NCBI GenBank assembly: GCA_052327205.1
Contig: CM126223.1
Coordinates: 37,076,001-37,140,000 of the forward strand
DNA length: 64,000 nucleotides
From: Somniosus microcephalus
Lineage: Eukaryota
Direction of reading: 5' to 3'
Below the pieces are notes generated by a model. It was given only the letters and a program-made list of their open reading frames with translations, made no database searches and had not been told where the DNA came from. This document shows positions 8,882 to 39,737 of this stretch, in pieces. Numbering within the stretch: position 1 is the stretch's first letter; every line of letters begins with the position of its first letter. A program made the translations under genes and the position numbers.

Positions 8882-9154
8882 CTGCAAGAGGCACAAACAA
8901 AAACAGCCGTTAAATTTATGTTTCACTCCATCTCATTCCGTTTCCCTTTTAAAAGCCTTCCCATCTTCAGTCATCGTTGCTGGGAAGAGCGGCAGGTGCA
9001 ATTTGACTGAATCCTGGTTTACACATCAACACACACAATTGAAAGAATGCCGACTTACTTGACAAACAAATAACACAATTCAAATGAGTGCTGACTCAAG
9101 CATTCAGTCTACTCTTAATTCAAAGTGGCTTAATTCCTACGATCCAGTAATTCA

Positions 9155-9654
9155 NNNNNNNNNNNNNNNNNNNNNNNNNNNNNNNNNNNNNNNNNNNNNN
9201 NNNNNNNNNNNNNNNNNNNNNNNNNNNNNNNNNNNNNNNNNNNNNNNNNNNNNNNNNNNNNNNNNNNNNNNNNNNNNNNNNNNNNNNNNNNNNNNNNNNN
9301 NNNNNNNNNNNNNNNNNNNNNNNNNNNNNNNNNNNNNNNNNNNNNNNNNNNNNNNNNNNNNNNNNNNNNNNNNNNNNNNNNNNNNNNNNNNNNNNNNNNN
9401 NNNNNNNNNNNNNNNNNNNNNNNNNNNNNNNNNNNNNNNNNNNNNNNNNNNNNNNNNNNNNNNNNNNNNNNNNNNNNNNNNNNNNNNNNNNNNNNNNNNN
9501 NNNNNNNNNNNNNNNNNNNNNNNNNNNNNNNNNNNNNNNNNNNNNNNNNNNNNNNNNNNNNNNNNNNNNNNNNNNNNNNNNNNNNNNNNNNNNNNNNNNN
9601 NNNNNNNNNNNNNNNNNNNNNNNNNNNNNNNNNNNNNNNNNNNNNNNNNNNNNN
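9155..9654. other. Assembly gap (500 N)
   Basis: Run of N. Confidence 1.
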
Positions 9655-10762
9655 CTCTCTCTGCGGGGGTCTCTCTCTCTCTCTCTGCCTGCGGGGGTCT
9701 CTCTCTCTGCGGGGGTCTCTCTCTCTCTCTGCCTGCGGGGGTCTCTCTCTCTCTCCTCTGCGGGGGTCTCCTCTCTGCGGGGGTCTCTCTCTCTCTCTGC
9801 CTGCGGGGGTCTCTCTCTCTCTCTCTGCGGGGGTCTCTCTCTCTGCGGGGGGGGCTCTCTCTCTCTCTCTCTCTCTGCGGGGGTCTCTCTCTCTGCGGGG
9901 GTCTCTCTCTCTCTGCAGGGGGTCTCTCTCTCTCTCTGCGGGGGGGGCTCTCTGCGGGGGGGGCTCTCTCTCTCTCTCTCTGCGGGGGGGGCTCTCTCTG
10001 CGGGGGGGGCTCTCTCTCTCTCTGCAGGGGGGCTCTCTCTCTGCGGGGGGGGCTCTCTCTCTCTCTGCGGGGGGGGCTCTCTCTCTCTCTGCGGGGGGCT
10101 CTCTCTCTCTCTCTCTCTCTGCAGGGGGGCGCTCTCTCTCTCTGCGGGGGGGGGCTCTCTCTCTCTCTCTCTGCGGGGGGGTCTCTCTCTCTGCGGGGGG
10201 GTCTCTCTCTCTCTCTCTGCGGGTGGTCTCTCTCTCTCTCTCTGCGGGGGGGCTCTCTCTCTCTCTCTCTGCGGGGGGGCTCTCTCTCTACGGGGGGCTC
10301 TCTCTCTCTCTCTGCGGGGGGTCTCTCTCTCTCTCTGCGGGGCATCTCTCTCTCTGCGGGGTGTCTCTCTCTCTCTCTCTCTCTCTCTGCGGGGGTCTCC
10401 CTCGCTCTCTCTCGCCGCTCTCTCTCTCTCTCTGCGGGGGTCTCTCTCTCTCTCTCTCTGCGGGGGGGGCTCTCTCTCTCTCTCTGCGGGGGGTCTCTCT
10501 CTCTCTCTCTCTGCGGGGGGGGGGGGCTCTCTCTCTCTCTCTGCGGGGGGGGCTCTCTCTCTCTCTCTCTCGGGGGGGGCTCTCTCTCTCTCTCTGCGGG
10601 GGTCTCTCTCTCTCTCTGCGGGGGATCTCTCTCTCTGCGGGGTCTCTCTCTCTCTCTCTCTGCGGGGGTCTCCCTCGCTCTCTCTCCGCGCTCTCTCTCT
10701 CTCTCTGCGGGGGTCTCCCTCGCTCTCTCTCGCGCTCTCTCTCTCTCTCTCTCTCTGCGGGG
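9655..10762. repeat. Compound (CT)n-GC-(G)n minisatellite
   Basis: Dozens of variable units of the form ctctctctctgcgggggg, abutting the gap. Confidence 0.95.
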
Positions 10763-11560
10763 AAGTGATACGAAAACATTAGAAAAATGGCGCAAACTGC
10801 ATTCATACCATTTCTCCATGGTTTCCGCGGCTCGTCGGCCAAAGTTACAATGGGCAGGCTGGAGACCCCCTGTGGGAATTCGTCCCCCCTGCACATCAAA
10901 CCTCTGCAATTTGCTGAGAGTCTGAATCATTTTCCAACCTTTGGCACCTTCAGTGCTGATAATATCGTGCATGCAACTGGACTGTCTCCAACAAAATCTT
11001 TGCTGACAGACCAGTAACCAGTAAACCAGGCCCTTCAGCCTAAGGACTTAGCCTGGTGTGTGTTCTAATGATAGTCAACTAGGAAACCTTGTGTAACATC
11101 CAGGGCACAATCCCAGGTGGTGCTTGGTCCTTTTAAATTGCTGCATCCCATTAGAACTAACTGAAGACAGATGAGTGTTGAGGAGAACCAGCCCTGGGGG
11201 TTCATGAACCTTTGGATGTCTGCAGTCAGACCCTGTTACAGCCAACAAGGTCCTCGGTCCCAGCCGAATCTCCACTGCAACTGTTGAGGCCTCTGGAAAT
11301 TCATTATTAGTTTCTCATTGCAGCAAAGTCCTGGCAAACCATTTACAAAGAAATATTCCACATCAAGATTACAAGTGGACTGAGATTTCTAGAAAATGAC
11401 AATAGAGGTTAACTGACCTTGCACTTTTTTTTTAAAACCATTTCTTTTGTTTGGACCTATGGTTCCCAAAGCTCGCCACCACTGGGGTTTTTCTTGTATC
11501 ATGTCTGGGTCTGTTGTAGACTAATTGAGAGAGATTGAGTAGAGAGAAATTGATAGAGAG

Positions 11561-12970
11561 GAAACGGGGAATTATAGACCGGTTAGCCTGACATCGGTGG
11601 TGGGGAAAATGCTAGAGTCCATTATAAAAGATGTAATAGCAGAGCACTTGGAAAACAGTGACAGGATCGGACAAAGTCAACATGGATTTACAAAAGGTAA
11701 ATCGTGCTTGACTAATCTACTGGAATTTTTTGAGGATGTAACTGGTAGAATAGATAAGGGAGAACCAGTGGATGGGGTGTATTTGGACTTTCAGAAGGCT
11801 TTTGATAAGGTCCCACATAAGACATTGGCGTGCAAAGTTAAAGCACATGGGATTGGGGGCAAGGTACTGACTTGGATAAAGAACTGGTTGGCAGACAGGA
11901 AGCAAAGAGTTGGAATAAACGGGTCTTTTTCCGAGTGGCAGGCAGTGACTAGTGGGGTACCGCAGGGATCGGTGCTAGGACCCCAGCATATACATATCAA
12001 TATATATTAATGATGATGATCTAGACGAGGGAATTAGATGTAATATCTCCAAGTTTGCAGATGACACAAAGCTGGGTGGGAGTCTGTGTTGAGAGGAGGA
12101 TGCAGAGAAACTCCAGGATGATTTGGACAGGTTGGGTGATTGGGCAGATGCAGTATAATGTGGATAAATGCGAGGTTATCCACTTTTGTAGCAAAAACAG
12201 GAAGACAGATTATTATCTGAACAGCAATAGATTGGGAAAAGGGGATGTGCAATGAGACCTGGGTGTCCTTGTGCACCAGTCGCTGAAGGTAAGCATGCAG
12301 GTGCAGCAGGCGGTGAAGAAGGCAAATGGTATGCTGGCCTTCATAGCGAGAGGATTCGAGTACAGGAGCAAGGATGTCTTGCTGCAGTTGTACAGGGTCT
12401 TGGTGAGACCACACCTTGAGTATTGTGTGCAGTTTGGTCGCCTTAGCTGAGGAAGGATGTTCTTGCCATGGAGGGAGTGCAGCGAAGATTCACCAGACTG
12501 ATACCTGGGATGGCAGGAATGACATATGAGGAGAGATTGGGTCAATTGGGCTTATATTCGCTAGAGTTTAGAAGAATGAGGGGGGATCTCATTGAAACTT
12601 ATAAAATTCTGACAGGACTGGACAGACTAGATGCAGGAAGGATGTTCCCAATGGCAGGGAGTCCAGAACCAGGGGTCACAGTCTAAGGATAAGAGGTAAG
12701 CCATTTAGGACAGAGATGAGGAGGAATTTCTTCACCCAGAGTGGTGAACCTGTGGAATTCTCTACCACAGAAGGCAGTTGAGGCCAATTCATTAAATATA
12801 TTCAAGAAGGAGTTAGATATATTTCTTAAGGCTAAAGGGATCAAGGGATATGGGGAGAAAGCAGGGACAGGGTACTGAATTTGGATGATCAGCCATGATC
12901 TCATTAAATGGTGGAACAGGCTCGAGGGGCCGAATGGCCTACTCCTGCTCCTATCTTCTATGTTTCTATG
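11561..12970 (+). mobile_element. CR1 LINE, 5'-truncated (RT domain plus 3'UTR), with frameshifts and stops
   Basis: QHGFTKGKSCLTNL, YLDFQKAFDKVPH, SGVPQGSVLGP and FADDTK motifs; tail ctatgtttctatg. Confidence 0.95.
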
Positions 12971-21413: not shown

Positions 21414-22155
21414 CTGTGGAGGAAGATAGAAAAGCCAGTTAATGTGGAAAGATAAACCATTTCTGACAGTTCTGTTGAGCAGGTGAAATGTTTAATTTAG
21501 GCCAGTAACTGTAGGAGAACAAAGCAGCTATCTTCAGAATAGGAAACAGCAGCTGGTGATTTTTCTTACACATTTCTAGCCCCTTCTTTTGTTCGCTGTT
21601 TATAACTCTGCAACTGTTCTGAGAAACAACAGCATTCTACTCCTATTTTGGTTGATGTGTACCATTTTACACCAAACATACATCTTCAAACTGTTGTTAT
21701 GCCAGCAAGTAGATTGTTGCTTCAGCAAACTTTGGGAGGAAAAAAATTGAAGGAGAGAGATATTAACACTGGGAAAAGTAACATTTCCCATTTCAATAAA
21801 GTCATCCACCGCACACCTAGGTGCAGAATAAAGCTCCGTCTACACAGCCCCAACAGTGTGTCTTGATCCCAATCTCAGAAGAGCTTCTCCAACTGCCTGC
21901 ATTCCTCTAACATTTTCCAGTTCCGACACCAGCTACCCTGTGGTCTCCCTGGCTGAGATTGTCTCATTAGTGCCAAATTATATGGACACAATTAGCGTTC
22001 TGCTTTTACTTTATCCCGACATGGATACATTTCAGATTCTGAGCAGTTCTTGCAAATGTCATACTGACTTCACTTTCTTTCATGCTTAGGCAAAATGTGA
22101 AGCAACTCTTTCTTTGGCTTCAAATCTTTCTGCACCAGTAAATCGTAGAGCAAGT

Positions 22156-23055
22156 TATTATCTTCATGGCAAGAAACTGGAAAGTACTGAAGTACAAAGG
22201 GATCTGGGGGTCCTGGTGCACGAAACTCAAAAGGTTAGTATGCAGGTGCAGCAAGTGATTAAGAAGGCCAATGGAATGTTGGCTTTCATTGCTAGGGGGA
22301 TAGAATATAAAAATAGGGAGGTATTGCTTCAGTTGTACAAGGTATTGGTGAGACCGCACCTGGAATACTGCGTACAGTTTTGGTGTCCATACTTAAGAAA
22401 GGACATACTTGCTCTCGAGTCAGTACAAAGAAGGTTCACTCAGTTAATCCCGGGGATGAGGGGATGGACATATGAGGAGAGGTTGAGTAGATTGGGACTC
22501 TACTCATTGGAGTTCAGAAGAATGAGAGGCGATCTTATTGAAACATATAAGATTGTGAAGGGGTTGGATCGGGTGGATACGGGGAAGATGTTCCCGATGA
22601 TGGGTGAAACTAGAACTAGGGGGCATAGTCTTAGAATAAGGGGCTGCTCTTTCAAAACTGAGATGAGGAGGAACTACTTCACTCAGAGGGTGGTAGGTCC
22701 ATGGAATATGCTGCCCCAAAAAGCTGTAGAAGCTACATCATTACATAAATTTAAAACAGAAATAGACAGTTTCCTAGAAGTAAAGGGAATTAAGGGTTAC
22801 GGGGAGCGGGCAGGAATTTGGACATGAGTCTAGGTTCGGATCGGTCATGGCCCTGCGGGTAGCGGAGCGGGCCCAGGGGCCGTGTAGCCTGATCCTGCTC
22901 CTATTTCATGTGTCTAATTCTGTTAGATTCAGGAGCTGGTTCTGTGATAGTGGATTGGCGGTTAGGATCAGATTAGCCATGATCTTATTGAATGGCGGAG
23001 CAGGCTCGAGGGGCCGATTGGCCTACTCCTGCTCCTATTTCTTATATTCTTATGT
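22156..23055 (+). mobile_element. Young CR1 3' fragment with a doubled 3'UTR
   Basis: Uninterrupted ORF 22114-22827 (ERDLGV-like, VRPHLEYCVQFW, RGHSLRI); two cctgctcctattt 3' modules. Confidence 0.95.
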
Positions 23056-26206: not shown

Positions 26207-27652
26207 TCAATTTTCAATTCAATTTTAAATTTTATTTTATTTGTCATATATGCAGCAGACGTGTGTACTGCACAATGAAATGTTGATTTTTACGAGTCCT
26301 CCCAACATTGGAATAAATATGGCATAACAATGATAAAAATACTAATAGAAATACTAATAGAAAGACAGTAATAATAAATAAAACAACAGTAATAAATAAT
26401 AATAAATTAATCGTTCATGAGTCTTATGGCCTGGGGGTAGAAGCTGTTTCGAAACCTGTTGGTACGAGACCGTATGCTTCGGTATCTCTTACCGGACGGG
26501 AGCAGGGCGAAGAGGTTGTGGCTGGGGTGACTCGCGTCTTTAATGATTCTCAGGGCCTTCTCCCGGCACCTCTCGGGGTAGATATCCTGCACAGCAGGTA
26601 GTTTAATTCCTATAGTGTGTTGTGCAGCTTTCACTACCATCTGTAGAGCCTTGCGGTCTGTGGCGGTGCAGTTGCCATACCAGGTAGTGATGTAGCCGGA
26701 CAGGATACTCTCGATGGTGCACCGGTAGAAGTTGGTGAGAATCTGGGGGGCCATTCCAAATTTCTTCAGTCTCCTGAGGAAGAACAGGCGTTGGCATGCC
26801 TTCTTGGTTACAACGTCGATGTGATGGGACCACGTTAAGTCCTCCGTAATGAATACACCCAGGAATTTGAAGCTGCTGACCCTCTCCACCTCAGCCCCTT
26901 CGATGTAGATTGGGGTGTGTCCCTCCCCCTGCCGCTTCCTGTAATCCACGATCATCTCCTTTGTTTTGCTGATGTTGAGGGAGAGGTTGTTGTACTTGTA
27001 CCATTCTGCTAGAGCTCTTACCTCCTCCCTGTAGCCTGTCTCGTCGCCATCTGTGATCAGGCCTACGACGGTAGTGTCATCAGCAAACTTGATGATGGAG
27101 TTGAAGTTGTGCATGGCCACGCAGTCGTGAGTAAACAGGGAGTACAGAAGGGGGCTGAGCACACAACCCTGGGGAGCTCCCGTGTTCAGGATCAGTGTGG
27201 AGGAGGTGTTTCTGTCTATTTTCACCACCTGGGGTCTTCCCGTCAGGAAGTCCAGGATCCAGTTGCATAGGGAGGTGTTAAGTCCTAGCTCACTGAGCTT
27301 GTTGACAAGCTTGGAGGGGTTAATGGTATTGAATGCTGAACTATAATCAATGAACAACATTCTCACATAGGTGTTCCTCTTATCCAGGTGTGATAAGGCA
27401 GTGTGCAGTACAGTGGCGGGTGGGGACTACAGACTGGTACAGTGAACGGTTGAATATATCCGTAAACACGGCAGCAAGCTGGTCAGCGCATGCTCTAAGG
27501 ACACGCCCAGGGATTCCATCTGGACCGGGTGCTTTGTGGGTGTTCACTCTCTTAAAGGTCTTGCTCACGTCAGCCACGGAGATTGAGGAGACCCGGTCGT
27601 CCTGAGCCGCGGGCGCCCTTGTAACAGGCCAGTTGTTGTTGGCCTCAAACCT
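26207..27652 (-). mobile_element. Rex1/Rex-Babar-type non-LTR retrotransposon, 5'-truncated with an internal deletion
   Basis: 319-aa ORF with [28 protein letters not shown] and [12 protein letters not shown]; (ttgaa)n tail; 8-bp TSD gactcgat at 26199-26206 and 27653-27660, inside a CR1 3'UTR. Confidence 0.88.
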
Positions 27653-28381: not shown

Positions 28382-28570
<189 letters not shown>

Positions 28571-31500
28571 TTACAAATGATAAAGTGCACAACAAAAACA
28601 AGCAAAGCATTTCGCACCTCTTCCATTATATACTGCGTACTTTATTTAAAATTAGGTTAGAACGGTAGCTTTGGAACAGGATTTGGTTTCACCAGCATCT
28701 TAAAACCAAACAGATTTAATTCTTTGCTCATAAGAATGTTGAAACAAGAAATGGGCGCCCACACACCCTGAAGGCTCAAGTTCTAATTCAACACCTCCAA
28801 AGATCACTGTGAGAAAGCCAATTTCTTTCAAGCAAGTCTGCTCCAAACTGGTCTATTTATCTGCATGCTACTATAACATGGGCGAACACTTAATGATCTT
28901 TCACCACATTTCCCTCTTGTTGCTAATGGCAGTGTGTGCTGACATGAGCAAACACAAGAAAATATCGCAATCTTGAAAAAGGCTCTGTATTTGTCTAAGC
29001 TCGCCACACACCCTCCCTGCCAATGAAGCTATTCACATGGAAACCTTGGCACATTTTCTTTTTGTGGGAATTAATATATTTTTATGGGAACACAGTTCCA
29101 TTTGAATGATGTTCCATGCATACACACTTAAGCCAAATCTAAATGCAATCTTCAAAAACTCAAATGGCTCTGTCCAACTGGGTCCTCCCTCTAATTTGAA
29201 TGAGCTTCAATTTTGGGATGGAGTTCATCTGTATTCAATGCCCTATATGATCGTTCAGCTGGAACAGCATCATCACTTTGGTCATAAATTTCTCCAGGCT
29301 CATCAAAACTAAGCTATGGCAACGCTAACTTTCTCAAGCCTGTACCTGCACAAGCTAATGGGGCAAGTCTGTAGTCTGCAGCCATATTGTGGAGACACAC
29401 CACTGTGAACGCACTCTAATCCTTTTAGAGGACGACGCATTGCAAAATTGAGTGAACATTAATCCCTTGCTCATCTGTTGTGATTTCAAGTTTGTTTCCC
29501 ATAAATTTATAATTTCCGTAAAAGAGGAAATCTTTCACTTACCACAGTGCTAATATTTTACCAATAATCAATTATAAGCTATAAAAAACAAATATCATTG
29601 TAGATCAGGTACCTCTCTTGTACTAATTGAGGAGAGAGAGGAAGGTGGCCAACCCACACACCATCTTGCTTCACCAACTATGGTGGATCAAATAACACAG
29701 CCATTAAAACTCCTTTACAGCTCCCGATATATTATGATGTCCAAAGATTATCAAGCCTTCCCATTAAGTTTGCTCTTCAGAGTTGGTTTTGGGTTCTCAT
29801 GGTAAAGATACGGTAAAACAGGCTTAAGGGATCTGTAGCCTGGTATGTGTAGTTTACAGAATACTGGTGAAATCACTTCCTGCTATAAGCAAAAACGCAA
29901 TGTGTAAGCATTATCGGAAACCAATAGCTGTAATGAGGAGTGAGAGAACCTGCGATTTATGGTGCCTTGATTTTACAATGCAGACCACACCTAACAAACC
30001 ACTTATACACATAGGGGCATGGACATTATGGCTCAGAGTTGGGACTGTATAATAGCGACTGAGTTTCAGACTTAATTAACTACACGTGGAGTGTATACAA
30101 GAGGGCAGTGAGAGGAACTGCTCCAAGAACTCTGCTAATACCACTTTTGTGCAGGACACCGAGAGGTATACAAAAGTAGATGGATGACAGCATCTCCCTG
30201 AGATTTACCTACTTCCTCTTTGGGGATACACCAGCCTCCACGCAGTGCTTTCCCACAGAAGGACGATAGAGTTCAGCCACTTGGAAAACATGTCTTGGGT
30301 ATAAGAAATACTATCACAGATAAAATGCACAGGATTCATCCAGAACCATCATGTCACTTACTGTTCAAAATGGATCACTTTCTCATAAATACACTGTTCA
30401 AAAACCTCCATATCCTCTTGGATTTTTAGGGCAGAAATCCCCAAAAAAATTTCATCATCAGTGAGGCTACCTACCAATCAGGTCTGATAGTTTAGCAATG
30501 AATCTGAGCCACATGAACAGAAGCAAGTTCTGCCAGCACTTTGGCGATAGATCTTAGTCCACATGGTTCACATGGCAAACTGTACATTTCGACTATTTGG
30601 AATCTTCCCTCAGATAATCGACGCGCTGGACTTTATATTTAATTTAGGGGCCCAACAAATATCGCAGTGCAAGACGACTAGGAATTTTGAACCCTGATCA
30701 TGTCAGGTGTGCTTTCAGCTTGGAGGCATTTACTCTGGTTCAATGAACACCATTGGTTTTAAATCATTAATCCCAGGCCCAACCGCCTTCCAGAACAAGG
30801 CCCAGTTTGTGGAGGTTATGTATGCTGCAGATAAATCCAGCGCAATGGAAAGCAGCAATAGCAGCAAAGAAAATGTATGGCTGTTACTGAATATTGGCAT
30901 GGAGCATTAAGCTTAGAAGTAGTAACTGAAATAAGTCAAATATTTTGACTGCACTAAAATAAAAAAACTTCTTGACTACAGCCAGTGAGGGAATCTTACA
31001 CTACCTTACATAGAGTTTGCTGAGGGATAGAGCCACTTAAAGTGTGGAATACATAGCTTCTATTGACCAACATCTAAAGTTATGCTAAATGACACTAACT
31101 GAGCACTATATATTGGATAAGTAACTTTTGAATTGGCTTTACTGAAAATAACCCTCAGTAAAACTGAACTGGATATTCTCTTAACTTTTAACAGGTGTCA
31201 TTTCAAGAAGATGGGGTTCAATAAAACCCAACTCAATATTGTTTTCCCGCTGAATGGTTTTGTTCTGACCAGATACAGTATTCCCTTTTGATCCTATTTC
31301 TGAATGCAAAACGCAAGCCTTCAGCTGATTAAAGCACCATGACCTCACAAATCACCTTTGGCATTTTGTGATTGCGACAGTTTGTTTTTACTCCTTCAAT
31401 GAATTTCATTTCTTTTGTCAAAATAACTTTCAGAAAACTAAAAATCAATTAAGGCCACTACCGTTTTTTTTTAAAAATGCCTCAAGCCATGCTAAGGAAT

Positions 31501-34061
31501 CCATACTGATCTGCGACTGCTAAGTGTTGGTCAGTGTTTGCAGATGAATGTCACATTCTACACTGTGAATCTTCCCATCTTAAGAAGGGATACTTCAAGG
31601 ATTCACTTGACTACAGGCAAAAGGTAAACTTCTGTAACTATTGCTTTGATATTTCTGACTGTCCCAGTAGACATAGGTGTTTAGCACTTCAAAAATTGGA
31701 ATTTTGTTAAAGAAAAAGCACTAGATATAAAAATAAATCGTAAATATTCATGTATTTGGAGAATTTCCAATGGATAATAGGCCTGTACAGAAAATTCCAG
31801 CAAGGTGATCTCTGCTCACCTGGAGACTTGGAAATGTGCATGCCTGTGGGGGAAGGACATCTCACCTCTCCAGAGTTCCATTTCAGGAGTTAAAAATGCG
31901 TGCATTCCACAGAGTTAAGATACCTAAGGTTAGGGGAGTCACCTGTACAGTGAAAAATATTTTAAGTGGTTGAATGCACAAAGGCAGAAAGGTTCTAGAT
32001 TCTGTCAAGTGTTGCTATCTATTTTGTTCTATGAGTGGAACAGTCACCGACAGAAGTGGAAGTGGGGTCTCCGTTTGAAAGCACTGGCTTGTAAACTTTC
32101 TGCACAGCCATTCATCCTCACGCACTGATAACATGCTTTATTTTGTTACTACTTTTAAGCTCTGCAGCAGACAGCAACTTATCGGAGTGTGTGCGTTGCA
32201 TGGAAGCACACCAATGACCAAGCAAAGCTTTAGATGCAAGAGATTTGAAAATGAAGTGGGAAAGCAGCTCTGCTGTGTGAATATCAATGATCGCAGCACA
32301 GTCAAAGAGCAGCTCACAGCGATGATTAAAAACCCTTGAAGCACTGTTGGTTAAGTGTGATCTCAGGCTGACTGGATCCCCATTTGTGTAAATAGGTTTG
32401 CTATCATGTCTATACTGAATGAAAGAGACCATACTCCCCCATACCCCTTTTGATAGCTGAGGTAGGCTACAATTCAAAGTGCCACTTTCATTTTTGTTCA
32501 ACAGCTGTCATGTCATTATCAGCAACTTATGGACATAATAATCCTCCCTGCATGCTCACTATGTTCAAATCGAGCCTCACCACACTATCCTCCTACCCTG
32601 ACCTATTCATTCCCATTCTCTTGGATAGACATCAACTTTTAAAACCCAACCTTGATGTCCCCTAACCACTGTTTACATCTAAAATTAAGTTCTGATGACA
32701 CATACACGCCCAAAACATTAACCTGCTTTTCCTCTTTACAGATAGCCACTGACCTACTATGTATTTACAGCAATTTCTGTTCTTATTTGCATCTTTTCGT
32801 CTACTCCTTGAACTGTGGTTTACCTCGGCTTCTCAATCCAAAAAGAAAACGCCCAGTCTTGCTACAAGCAGCAGAATAAAGAGCACTAGTTCTGTCAAAA
32901 CTTTAAGTGGGCCTCCAAAATACTGCACTTCAGCATTCAAATTAAATATAGCATCAAATCCAAGTGTGTTAATAAGGAATACCTGTTGCTTTACAGAAGC
33001 TCCACAGGCCTCATTCAAAGCTATCAGACATCAGTTGTGCTCAACAAAACATTTAAAATACTTCAACGATCACAAAGTTTAATTGTGTTTCTTTAAAAAG
33101 TTCATACTCGGTGCCAGAAGCTGTGTAGGAATGCAAGTAAAAATGGTAGTTTGATTGCATTCAGTCCCTAAAACTATATTTAATAGATTGTAGCCTTTAC
33201 ATTTCTGACTGTTGTGATTAGTTCAAGGGAATTTTCGTGCGCCTTTGATATCCAGGCTGTTTAAATCATCAGAAAGGATACGGTTTCTTAAGGCAAGACT
33301 CTGGTGTGAATTAAAATGCACAATGCTCTGAGTGATGAGCAGCAGGTGGTGCACTGAAGTCGAATTGGAAACCATCTCCTCCTGTGCCTGCTCTCAACTT
33401 GAATTGGCTCTGGTGCAAATGGACAATCCAAAGTCAAGCTGGTTTTATTATTCCATTGTTCCGTCCTTTAGCTGCCAATGAATTCACCATTTCTTTTTGA
33501 CAGGAGAGTAATTATCTTGATATATTAATTATCATGATGTCCCATTATGTTTATTCCTGAAAGTATGCATTCCTTGCAGTGAAGTCCGTGCTGTTAGCAG
33601 ATAATCACAAGCCGTTGTTTATACTTTTTGCTGCAAGGGAGGCAAGGCATGAACCTCACCTACTTGAGAACTTATTCATTCCAGATCCATTTTATTTGCA
33701 ATGATTTAAGCATTCTTTGCGACTTCACTCAGGACAGCAAAATAGTGCTTGAAAATATGTTGCAACAGTGGGCCTGACAAATGAGAATGGTCTTGGCAAA
33801 AATAAATTTTAAATGTTAACTATTGACCTTTAACCTGTGCAGGATGAAGGACACACCTGGCATCTATTCTGGATCACACCTTCTGGTCTCTTGATCCTTT
33901 TTGCCCAGTTCATGTTTGTTCACTTTCAGGAATGATGGTCAGCATCCTTTGAGGGCTTTTAAGGGTAACAAGCCACCCAGATTAATAGGCTTTAGCAGCT
34001 CTGGCCAAAATCCAATCACCAGAAATAACTATTTAATAATATACGTGCATACGTGTCAGAT

Positions 34062-35193
34062 CATACTGCACAAGGTAAGAGCGCACGGGGTTGGGGGTAA
34101 TATATTGGCATGGATAGGGGATTAGCTAACTAACAGAAAACAGAGAGTCGGGATAAATGGGTCATTTTCCGGTTGGCAACCAGTAACTAGTGGGGTGCCA
34201 CGGGGATCAGTGCTGGGGCCTCAACTATTTACAATCTATATTAATGACTTGGATGAAGGGACCGAGTGTACTGTAGCCAAATTTGCTAATGATACCAAGA
34301 TAGGTGGGTTAGCATGTTGTGAGGAGGACACAAAAGAATCTGCAAAGGGATATAGATAGGTTAAGTGAGTGGGCAAACATTTGGCAGATGGAGTATAATG
34401 TGGGAAAATGTGAGGTTATCCACTTTGGAAGGAAGAATGAAAAAGCAAATTATTATTTAAATGGAGTGAGACTACAAAATGCTGCGGTACAGAGGGATCT
34501 GGGGGTCCGAGTACATGAAACACAAAAAGTTAGCATGCAGGTACAGCAAGTAATTAGGAAGGTTAATGGAATGTTGGCCTTTATTGCAAGGGGTATGGAG
34601 TATAAAAGTAGGGAAGTTTTGATGCAACTTTACAGGGCGCTGGTGAGACCGCACCTGGAGTACTGCGTACAGTTGTGGTCTCCGTATTTAAGGAAGGATA
34701 TACTTGCATTGGAGACAGTGCAGAGAAGGTTCACTAGGTTGATTCCTGGGATGAAGGGGTTGATGTATGATGAAAGGTTGAGCAGGTTGGGCCTATATTC
34801 ATTGGAGTTTAGAAGAATGAGAGGGGATCTTATTGAAACATATAAGATTCTGAGGGGGATTGACAGGGTGGATACTGAGAGGATGTTTCCCCTTGTGGGG
34901 GAATCTAGAACTAGGGGGCATAGTTTCAGAATAAGGGGTCTCCCATTTAAGACGGAGATGAGAAGGAATTTCTTCTCTCAGAAGGTCGTGAATCTTTGGA
35001 ATTCTCTACCCCAGAGAGCTGTGGAGGTAGAGTCACTGAATATATTCGAGGAGGAGACTGACAGACATTTGAACTACAAGGGAGTCAAGGGGTATGGGGA
35101 GAGGGCGGGAAAGTGGTGTTGAGGACAAGATTGGATCAGCCACGATCTTATTGAATGGCGCAGCAGGCTCGAGGCTCCTGTTTCTTATGTTCT
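34062..35193 (+). mobile_element. CR1 LINE 3' fragment
   Basis: ORF 34319-35122 with WQMEYNVGKCEVIHFG and VRPHLEYCVQ; CR1 3'UTR. Confidence 0.95.
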
Positions 35194-36284: not shown

Positions 36285-37530
36285 TAATTAAGTTCAGGCA
36301 GTGTCTGGGGCTGATAACATGGCCCTGGCATTGAAGGAGCAGAAGCGTTGCTGTTTAGATGCTGCAGACGCCTGTAGCTCTAGACGAGGTCAGCTGCTTT
36401 GGTGCACATCTTCGGTCGCCAGCAGCTTTTAAAGAGTTGCTGGTGCCTTAAAGCCGTCATGATACTCAAGGGCAGAAAGCAAGACCAAGGTGACAGACTG
36501 CAACCATCAAGGATGCAGCGTTGCAGGAGGTGCTGGAGAGAATGGTGGTCCGTTTTGAGGAAGCTGAGGCTGATGCTGTAATCAACCGACGTCAAGGCAT
36601 ATGAATTTCCAGCAGAGGCTGTTGGCTGGAGGTCGGAGCAGGAACCTTCCCTAATCCAGGACTACTGAGGCCAACTGCAGTGCATCTACAGCCACTCTGC
36701 TGAGATTAGGTAACTTAGCACAGGCCAGGGGGCAAACCTGGGACCTTCCTGCTCTGTGCAGCTGAGAGGCAAAATAGAAGCAGAGTTTCTAAACATTTCT
36801 TTACTGAAAATCTTTTAAGCATTTATATTAGTGAAAGAAGACTAATATCGGTGATATCTAATAGCATTGCTGCAGTATATGGGTTTGTTTCACTGTGCGT
36901 AGGCTGAATTCTTGAACCGGTTGATCGGAGGAGCACAGAATCCCTGGATTAGCTGGTATTACAAGGGTTAAACATAAATAGTATATAAAGAATCCTGGAG
37001 TCTACCTCAAGTGTTTATTTGACTTTTGGCAAGTTAAATTTGTCTGAGTCACTTGAGACCCGAGAAAGACATAAAAGGAAACTTCGGTGACAGAGGAAAT
37101 AAAAGCCAGACTGCGGAGTCTGTGGCTTTACACAATATAATGATTCACCATTCAGTGACAACATTGGAAATCAGAGGGGAAAGTGATCGCCAGTTTCTGC
37201 AAGGGGTTGCATCTCTGAAAGCCTTGATTAACACAAGTCTGATGGTTTTATTGGCGAAAGAGGTCTGAAAAGTGGCTATAAATAGAAATGGTTTAAAAAC
37301 AGGATTGAAAGGCGTCCTACATTCTGCACACAATGAGTTCTGGGTCTTAGCTCGGTCAGATCTGAGTGAGACGCTTTTCTATAAAAAGGGAGGGGAAAAA
37401 GCAAAACTAAATTTAACCAGACAACAATCCCCTCTCATCCACGCCTCCCCTGCCCCACGCCCGCCGCAGCAGCCACTCTCTCTCTCCCGCCTCCTCTTGG
37501 CCTAGTACAGAGAGAGACACTGTCAGGTAC

Positions 37531-37587
37531 CTGGGAGCAAGTCTCCTCGCCACGGTCTCAGACAGGCTATGCCGTGTGACATTAGGC
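37531..37587 (-). other. AUTS2: Candidate 57-nt stop-containing (poison) cassette exon of AUTS2
   Basis: cttaactctatttttaactctcag|GCC TAA ... gctcccag|gtacct. The second codon is a stop in the phase-0 frame set by exon 10. It lies in a stretch where I recognise no transposon. Confidence 0.6.
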
Positions 37588-38097
37588 CTGAGAGTTAAAA
37601 ATAGAGTTAAGCAGTAATTTCTGCACAGGTTTCTCCAAGCACACTGAAACTGAATGTTCTGTATAAAGTTTTTCCCTTAACAGCCTGTCAATTCAACTCC
37701 AAATGCAATAAATGCTAAAAGGCCAAAAAGACTTTAGGGACAAGAACAGTATAACAAGTATTTTGCCTCACCAGAAAGAAGTGTTTTGTTAACCAGGCTA
37801 GTCTCAGTGTCCGTGGCTGGCATGACTTCATTCTGCAGCTTAAATGGGAATAGTGCGTTTATGCCAAATTCAATCTAACTTTGACACATTTGCGCTACAC
37901 TGGAAGTATTGCATGCACGAGGGCCGCCAATACAAAACAACAGCCTGCTAACAACCCGATTTTCTTTTATATGTTGGGGTGTTGAGGCACGAACCATGAA
38001 GCTCAAGTTATCACACTAAAGCTTGAACTAACACAGTGCTTCAAGGGTTGTCTATGGCTGGAGCTATGAAGTTTGGTGTAATGGTGAGTTCACTCAC

Positions 38098-38142
38098 ACT
38101 GTGTCGGTAGAAGGGATCAACTTTTGTTGGGTATTTGTCAAA
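38098..38142 (-). CDS. AUTS2: AUTS2 coding exon (exon 10 equivalent)
   Basis: ctttgcag|...|gtgagt; 45 nt, phase 0/0; FDKYPTKVDPFYRHS. Confidence 0.97.
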
Positions 38143-39737
38143 CTGCAAAGGAATCAAAGCACGTAAAACAGGTTATGGTCTGTTAACACAGATTCATTCT
38201 TGTTGCCATGGCAACGCAAGTTCTGCTGTTCAAAAACAATCTGTCACACCGAACTGGAGCCACAAGTGTCAGATATTACAATCCACGCGTGATAAAATAA
38301 ATCAAGCTCCTAGACAACATTCGGTCTTGTCTTATATATTTTAACACAGATCCATAGTCTGTGCTGTGCAAATGTTTTGTATTTCATGAGCTCTTAGATC
38401 GACATTCTGTTAAAAATATAAAAGACAAAATACATTCACGGGTATCACTGATATGTAGGCCGGGTTCTCTGCTTCTGTGCTCGCCAGTGTACAACTTTTT
38501 GTCTATTCACTTTAATGGGCAGAAAATCGCAGGCTGCCCAGTGCAAAAGTAGAAATTCAAGGCCATAGAATTTATTTTTTGGGGAGAAAGGGAGGCTTTT
38601 TTTCCTATTTCACTTCATGGTCTCCTCATCACAATCTGACCAAGTAGGTAAACTTCTTCCACGCCTCCACCAGTCCCACTCCTGGTCTGGCTTCCAGAGG
38701 TTTTTTTCTTTAAGATGATGTGCCCGCGTCATTTTCTCTCCCTTAAGGACGGTGCCAGGCCTCCTGTCACCGCCTCTCTCCTCCTCAACAGCAAGCCAGA
38801 GAAGAAGCAACAGCTCACTGCATGGAAAATCATGGGGTGCAAACCCAGGTCCTACTCCATGGGCAGTATGAAGCTTCACTATTCCATGCACAGTTTGTTT
38901 TTAACAGAATATTGCTCTTGTACGTGACAGAAATACATTCAAGAGTTGGATGATGCTCAGAACCCCACCCCATGAATTTGTAGATTATAAAATGATGGTG
39001 TAAAAATTCAGTAACAACATTCAGACCAACTTATTTTCATCTTCAAAGCATCATGAGGAAGAGCAGCCTGGCTCTTTCAAAGCCAAGGGGAGTGTCCTGT
39101 AATCCAAGGGGTTAACACGGTAATGCGACGTAAAGATATCAGACCAGACAGGAATTTGACTTCCACATAAATGTATAGCATTTCAAAACTGAAACGGTTT
39201 TCTTAAAAAGAGACTGCATTCCTTTTCTTCCTCTGTCTCAATTTAACTGTTGCTTATCTTTTCAATGAGTTCTGTGTAGGTTGTTTTAAAAAATGGGTTT
39301 AAAACAGTGATGCACAATTTGTTACAGTGCTACAAATAACTAGTGTCCAATATAACCTGCACATTTTAGTGGATTATCTGTTTACATTTCTTCAGCCTCA
39401 CAATAAATAGGTCAAGTTTCAGACTCTCAGCTTTTGCCCTTTTAGACCAATAGAAAGAGTCTTTAAAACTGTAATAAATACAAATGTTCTAAACCATGGA
39501 GGAAAAGATGAACAAAGTATATAATGGCAAGTAAACTATTTGGACGAAGTCTCTGCAAGAGGCACCCATATTGCTATTCTTGTATTTGTAAAACCACCAA
39601 TAACTAGCAGCTATAAGCATAATTAAAAACAGGCTAAATAAATGTTTTTAATTAATTGGACATGACCCTATTTACAGTGACGTCTCTAAACCAAATACAT
39701 TACTGAAATGTTGCATAGATCTTATTTTTATTTTAGG

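Follow-up and report, generated by a model that had tools for sequence, protein, structure and literature searches.

The window analysed here is a 64-kb stretch of the 6.45-Gb Somniosus microcephalus genome, and mapping of a database AUTS2 protein places AUTS2 exons 8-16 on its minus strand, near 46.0, 41.9, 38.1, 28.5, 21.4, 15.8, 14.1, 8.9 and 4.7 kb. Exon 10 (38098..38142, minus strand) is 45 nt long and in phase 0 at both ends, and all 15 of its residues are identical in platypus AUTS2 (P0002). Exon 11 (28436..28531, minus strand) starts at 28531, and intron 10 between the two is 9566 nt long and includes a LINE. Two AUTS2 paralogues are found in the same genome, on C19 and C35. The exon 10-11 peptides of the C19 copy equal the sawfish proteins P0005-P0010 and resemble FBRSL1, while the C35 copy is probably FBRS-like. 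The identity of exon 10 with platypus AUTS2, together with the FBRSL1-like peptides of the C19 paralogue, suggests that the gene in the window is AUTS2 proper.

Other features of the gene are also visible in the window. LINE reverse-transcriptase fragments, which from their translations we take to be CR1/L2-like, lie in AUTS2 introns at 26410-27426 (minus strand), 33900-35170, 22090-22820 and 11540-12930. Just upstream of exon 15 (minus strand), at about 9150-10780, a 500-base N gap precedes some 1.1 kb of CT-rich simple repeat. In exon 9 (about 41.9-41.7 kb, minus strand) two donors are separated by 21 nt, an arrangement that is common to the C35 paralogue and that the available parts of earlier reports describe in zebrafish auts2a and human AUTS2 (PMC5555464, PMC9008325). 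According to the accessible portion of the latter, AUTS2 has 19 exons and produces a C-terminal isoform with its start in exon 9 (PMC9008325).

A candidate cassette exon in intron 10

The segment under study is a 57-nt candidate cassette exon (37531..37587, minus strand) separated from exon 10 by 510 nt of intron (38097-37588). It begins GCC TAA and ends CAG|GTACCT on the minus strand, so that, entered from exon 10 in phase 0, it would add one Ala and then stop at an in-frame TAA (37582..37584, minus strand) 51 nt before its own 3' end. The length, the distance, the sequence at both ends and the phase of exon 10 had been given in an earlier sequence-only reading of the window and hold up on re-measurement.

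The acceptor region (37588..37611, minus strand) consists of a branch-point-like cttaac with its A at -20, a pyrimidine tract and CAG; the acceptor ranks seventh among the 651 AGs of intron 10, and the closest AG upstream of it ends 33 nt away. The sequence-only reading had counted two branch-point-like motifs, of which the second, tttaac, has its A at -8, too close to serve. The donor GTACCT (37522..37530, minus strand), which ranks 28th among the 526 GTs of the intron, overlaps a branch-point-like CTGAC motif (A at 37523). A scoring matrix built on approximate vertebrate frequencies gives the acceptor 9.0 bits and the donor 6.4 bits, both inside the range of the real AUTS2 sites and of usable strength. 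The donor had been called weak, a description that does not fit its position between the donors of exon 10 (6.0 bits) and exon 11 (7.3 bits); it matches 7 of 11 U1-consensus positions, as do the donors of exons 11, 12 and 14.

A stop codon well upstream of a later exon junction generally leads to nonsense-mediated decay (the exon-junction rule). For the TAA at 37584-37582, the distance to a later junction exceeds 50-55 nt, and six or more exons (11-16) still follow within the window, as the sequence-only reading had anticipated. From the position of the stop and the presence of these downstream exons, a transcript that includes the cassette is therefore a predicted decay target under this rule. 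By the same rule, a stable N-terminal isoform, which had also been suggested, is an unlikely product of two-sided cassette inclusion and would need a terminal-exon route. The candidate thus has two features of poison exons, usable splice sites and a premature stop, and is to be read as a candidate member of that class only.

Several motifs flank the segment. Five G-runs downstream of the donor (37429..37488, minus strand), each of at least three G and all within 130 nt, may act as an hnRNP H/F-type enhancer; five or more G-runs are found in 20 of 492 such 130-nt tiles along the minus strand of the window. Enhancers of this type are reportedly weak or absent in teleost introns. A TGCATG (37912..37917, minus strand), matching an Rbfox-type motif and lying within a few nucleotides of the position given for it earlier (about 37910), sits 180 nt past exon 10 and some 325 nt short of the cassette. 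It is one of four copies in intron 10, and the motif is not enriched (the window has 21 copies on its minus strand and 17 on its plus strand).

A detail that adds to the earlier picture is found on the other side of the donor, where a CU-rich tract leads into a second acceptor-like site, TAG|GCC (37501..37520, minus strand; 7.4 bits), 22 nt after the branch-like A noted above. The second acceptor lies 30 nt beyond the cassette donor, and the donor overlaps the putative branch point that would serve it; U1 at the donor and U2 at this branch point would presumably be unable to bind together. If the second acceptor (37501) were used, translation would continue for 40 residues and then stop, so this product would also be unproductive. 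The CU tract may be a PTBP1-type site, judging from motifs of the kind given in the available part of PMC11188260. Two further splice-like sites nearby have no obvious strong partner: a donor-like site at 37772 (minus strand, 9.3 bits), 326 nt into intron 10, and an acceptor-like site at 37378 (minus strand, 9.7 bits), about 150 nt after the candidate. The density of splice-like sites fits a regulated or decoy region, and chance as well.

The candidate lies in unique DNA. The sequence-only reading had recognised no transposon between 36.8 and 38.6 kb, and this is borne out by a longer repeat-free stretch (36291..39717) that surrounds exon 10 and the cassette and is unmatched in a 384-kb library from the same genome; at 3.4 kb it is the fourth longest such stretch in the window, as measured against this small library. 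In a genome search that skips very common words, the single match of 37400-38200 is itself. Neither this search nor the 384-kb library, both of which give copy counts as lower bounds, revealed similarity to a repeated element from which the exon could derive. The longest stretch of the window unmatched in the library, 5.5 kb at 28508-34063, lies upstream of exon 11 and may hold conserved elements. The CpG ratio around the cassette (0.41) is ordinary, with 19 of 56 unique tiles as high. No folding beyond that of shuffled sequences was detected (z = -0.75) and Rfam returned one match, at chance level (E 0.89); the segment does not qualify as a structured non-coding RNA or a structure-gated splice switch.

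Comparison with the equivalent FBRSL1/FBRS intron, which the sequence-only reading had put forward as a check, yielded no counterpart in either paralogue. The 1028-nt intron 10 of the FBRSL1-like copy on C19 contains no sequence similar to the cassette, and no cassette of its own even when the thresholds are lowered to 7 and 5 bits. In the C35 copy (about 44,752,500-44,755,500), exons 9 and 11 are seen with no recognisable exon 10 between them. Loss of similarity is expected between paralogues of this age, and the missing counterpart says little. A shared cassette would have dated the exon before the gene duplications, and such sharing is not required for membership among poison exons.

Chance background and competing readings

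To what extent splice-like signals of this strength occur by chance is indicated by the surrounding DNA. Within intron 10, three distinct acceptors have a comparably strong donor partner 30-200 nt away, the candidate being one of them, and across the window the sense and antisense strands have 19 such partnered acceptors each. Decay-causing pseudo-cassettes in which both sites are at least as strong as those of the candidate are present in 22 of the 123 remaining 1-kb window tiles and, on either strand, in 65 of 357 flanking 1-kb tiles (about 18%), the latter drawn from 200 kb with N-containing tiles and the ends of each stretch left out. Adding a branch motif reduces these counts to 13/123 and 28/357, respectively. 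When a tile must combine the two sites with a branch point between -45 and -15 and at least five G-runs, a combination and G-run filter defined after the candidate had been seen, one window tile (1/123) and two flanking tiles (2/357) remain. A pseudo-cassette with a branch point and a stop within its first two codons is found in three of the 357 flanking tiles.

The splice signals alone are ordinary and do not exceed chance. The full combination, present in 3 of 480 tiles, corresponds to about 0.4 occurrences expected by chance on the sense strand of the 64-kb window. The whole arrangement falls in the top 1% of tiles by this post hoc measure, which raises the odds moderately, and the location of the candidate within 0.6 kb of a real exon raises them further. 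Two other cassette-like segments of intron 10 are decay-causing and score at least as high as the candidate, one at 34745-34655 (minus strand), antisense inside a LINE, and one at 31942-31866/31820 (minus strand), in unique DNA.

Our preferred reading, at about even odds (probability roughly 0.5), is that the 57-nt segment is a real AUTS2 poison cassette exon, which would couple splicing to decay and trim the dose of the gene product. Nearly as likely is a pseudo-exon, in which splice-like motifs have arisen by chance in ordinary unique intron DNA and are used never or only noisily. The background counts speak for such an origin, with equally strong decay-causing pseudo-cassettes in 65/357 and 22/123 tiles, as do two sites within 1.4 kb of exon 10, an acceptor (37378) and a donor (37772), that outscore those of the candidate and have no known use. 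The lack of a counterpart in the paralogues and of any CpG or structure signal points the same way. Against a pseudo-exon stand the full set of signals, which few tiles share by the post hoc measure above, and the nearness of exon 10. That the segment is instead a DNA-level element such as an enhancer, its splice-like motifs being incidental, is highly improbable. Intronic enhancers are known in number at the AUTS2 locus and the surrounding DNA is unique and repeat-free, but no positive evidence favours an enhancer here, and the motifs are strand-specific and ordered like those of an exon.

The same sites could also serve something other than a cassette, either as a decoy that favours keeping the first part of intron 10 in the transcript or as an alternative last exon, a reading that we regard as unlikely. 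A decoy role is consistent with the cluster of acceptors (37587, 37501 and 37378) and donors (37772 and 37531) and with the overlap of the cassette donor with a second branch point and acceptor; it is also in line with the observation, in the available part of a study of cryptic exons, that flanking retention is the most frequent event at such exons (PMC11632617). As a last exon, the segment would be opened by its acceptor and end at AATAAA near 37252, giving a decay-resistant N-terminal product. AATAAA-type motifs do occur at 37252 and 37019, but three AATAAA/ATTAAA motifs in 2.6 kb is the chance rate. Zebrafish RNA-seq models provide a further point of comparison, where Table S2 of PMC5555464 gives intron 10 as the site of an alternative 3' end for 3 of 20 auts2a transcript groups. 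Two of these ends, placed by means of estimated exon lengths, lie roughly 455 and 630 nt inside the intron, close to where the candidate begins relative to exon 10. By arithmetic from the same table, groups R10 and R13 extend 20 residues past exon 10, as read-through would give, and the window's own read-through from exon 10 amounts to 18 residues. However, zebrafish auts2a models also end in introns 4, 7, 9, 11 and 15-18 (PMC5555464 Table S2), so intron 10 is not special in this respect, and the models may be pre-mRNA fragments. Given similar ends in these eight other introns, the zebrafish ends in intron 10 are at most a hint toward retention.

The poison-exon reading predicts a product that ends one residue after exon 10, and none of the 20 groups of the zebrafish table (PMC5555464 Table S2) consists of exon 10 plus one residue. 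The 196-residue group R12 was considered as exon 10 plus Ala and rejected; it represents read-through of exon 9 into intron 9, with 8 extra residues from intron 9 as in R6 (PMC5555464). Among the 120 listed of 541 matches in a protein search, which included almost no vertebrate AUTS2 orthologues, no isoform ends one residue after exon 10. A second search, also with few AUTS2 orthologues, gave no such isoform in 4 matches from 7 candidates, three of them genomic read-throughs.

Full-text literature searches turned up no account of an AUTS2 exon lying between exons 10 and 11; such an exon could still be listed in poison-exon catalogues, and the candidate may already be annotated in GENCODE or VastDB. 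In the available parts of the decay-splicing supplements of PMC8091538, PMC11188260, PMC7347940 and PMC11632617, whose tables may use other identifiers, no AUTS2 rows were seen, and the main text of PMC10123112 contains no AUTS2. Two published mentions of the gene were set aside. The Auts2 event in PMC11836289 spans 6 kb and lies, by what we take to be the mouse coordinates, near the gene's 3' end, so it is not in intron 10. The Auts2 passages in the accessible text of PMC12221596 are unrelated to an intron 10 exon.

Proposed regulation and relation to known systems

Under the poison-exon reading, the cassette would be spliced between exons 10 and 11, adding Ala and a stop, and the resulting transcript would be sent to nonsense-mediated decay, lowering AUTS2 output. 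Binders of the G-runs (hnRNP H/F type) may help the cassette donor, and the CU tract (PTBP1 type) together with the upstream UGCAUG (Rbfox type) could tune inclusion by cell type, the simplest form being skipping in neurons. U1 at the donor would compete with U2 bound to the second acceptor's branch point, which the donor overlaps. The cassette lies downstream of exon 9, and by this location inclusion would affect both the full-length and the C-terminal transcripts known in mammals.

AUTS2 is described, in the available part of PMC9008325, as a chromatin and RNA regulator. The same source reports that human AUTS2 mutations are heterozygous and that behaviour is altered in mice with roughly half the protein. 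AUTS2 also binds its own transcript in human neural progenitors, according to the accessible part of a recent preprint (bioRxiv 10.1101/2025.10.07.681056). If the candidate is real, a decay exon after exon 10 would place dose control on both major isoforms and offer a target for splice-switching drugs, and its presence in a cartilaginous fish would date this control to early jawed vertebrates. The broader proposal is that both AUTS2 isoforms have their dose set by a poison exon that jawed vertebrates have conserved, with U1 and U2 competing at one site; it is speculative and, in our view, rather doubtful. Were it true and the exon kept in humans, an antisense oligonucleotide that blocks the exon would, in AUTS2 syndrome, increase the AUTS2 made from the intact allele.

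The region of the gene in which the candidate lies is already known for transcript variation. The available parts of PMC5555464 and PMC9008325 describe alternative exon 9 donors, a start in exon 9 and ends in intron 10; the candidate differs from all of these in being a stop-carrying cassette between exons 10 and 11, of which these parts contain no description. The cluster of unused-looking sites in an intron of a regulator gene recalls the decoy exons of SF3B1 intron 4, which promote retention according to the available part of PMC6097662. At 9.6 kb and with a LINE inside it, AUTS2 intron 10 is unlike a compact retained intron.

Unannotated conserved poison exons do exist in human introns, most often in brain, testis and muscle, but the accessible part of the study that describes them attributes to them only about 0.1% of conserved intronic sequence (PMC11632617). 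The candidate resembles these cryptic exons in being an unannotated cassette candidate in a protein-coding intron with predicted decay; they differ in having been defined by split reads, coverage and conservation, whereas the AUTS2 candidate is defined by its sequence.

The closest likeness is to the PTBP1-regulated poison exons of Fmnl3, Iqgap1 and Ripk1 (PMC11188260) and to SCN1A 20N (bioRxiv 10.1101/2023.01.12.523654), as these known systems are presented in the available parts of the two reports. Each is a short intronic cassette whose own stop lies far upstream of exon junctions, and the likeness extends to a dosage-sensitive gene and adjoining pyrimidine-rich motifs. Unlike the AUTS2 candidate, which is known from sequence alone, the four exons have been shown in these accounts to be included, decay-sensitive and conserved. 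The accounts further indicate that PTBP1 represses them and that neurons include them; for the AUTS2 candidate, the direction of control is a guess. The poison-exon mechanism itself is well known, and the value of the candidate lies in the gene, which is dosage-sensitive and neurodevelopmental, rather than in a new kind of system.
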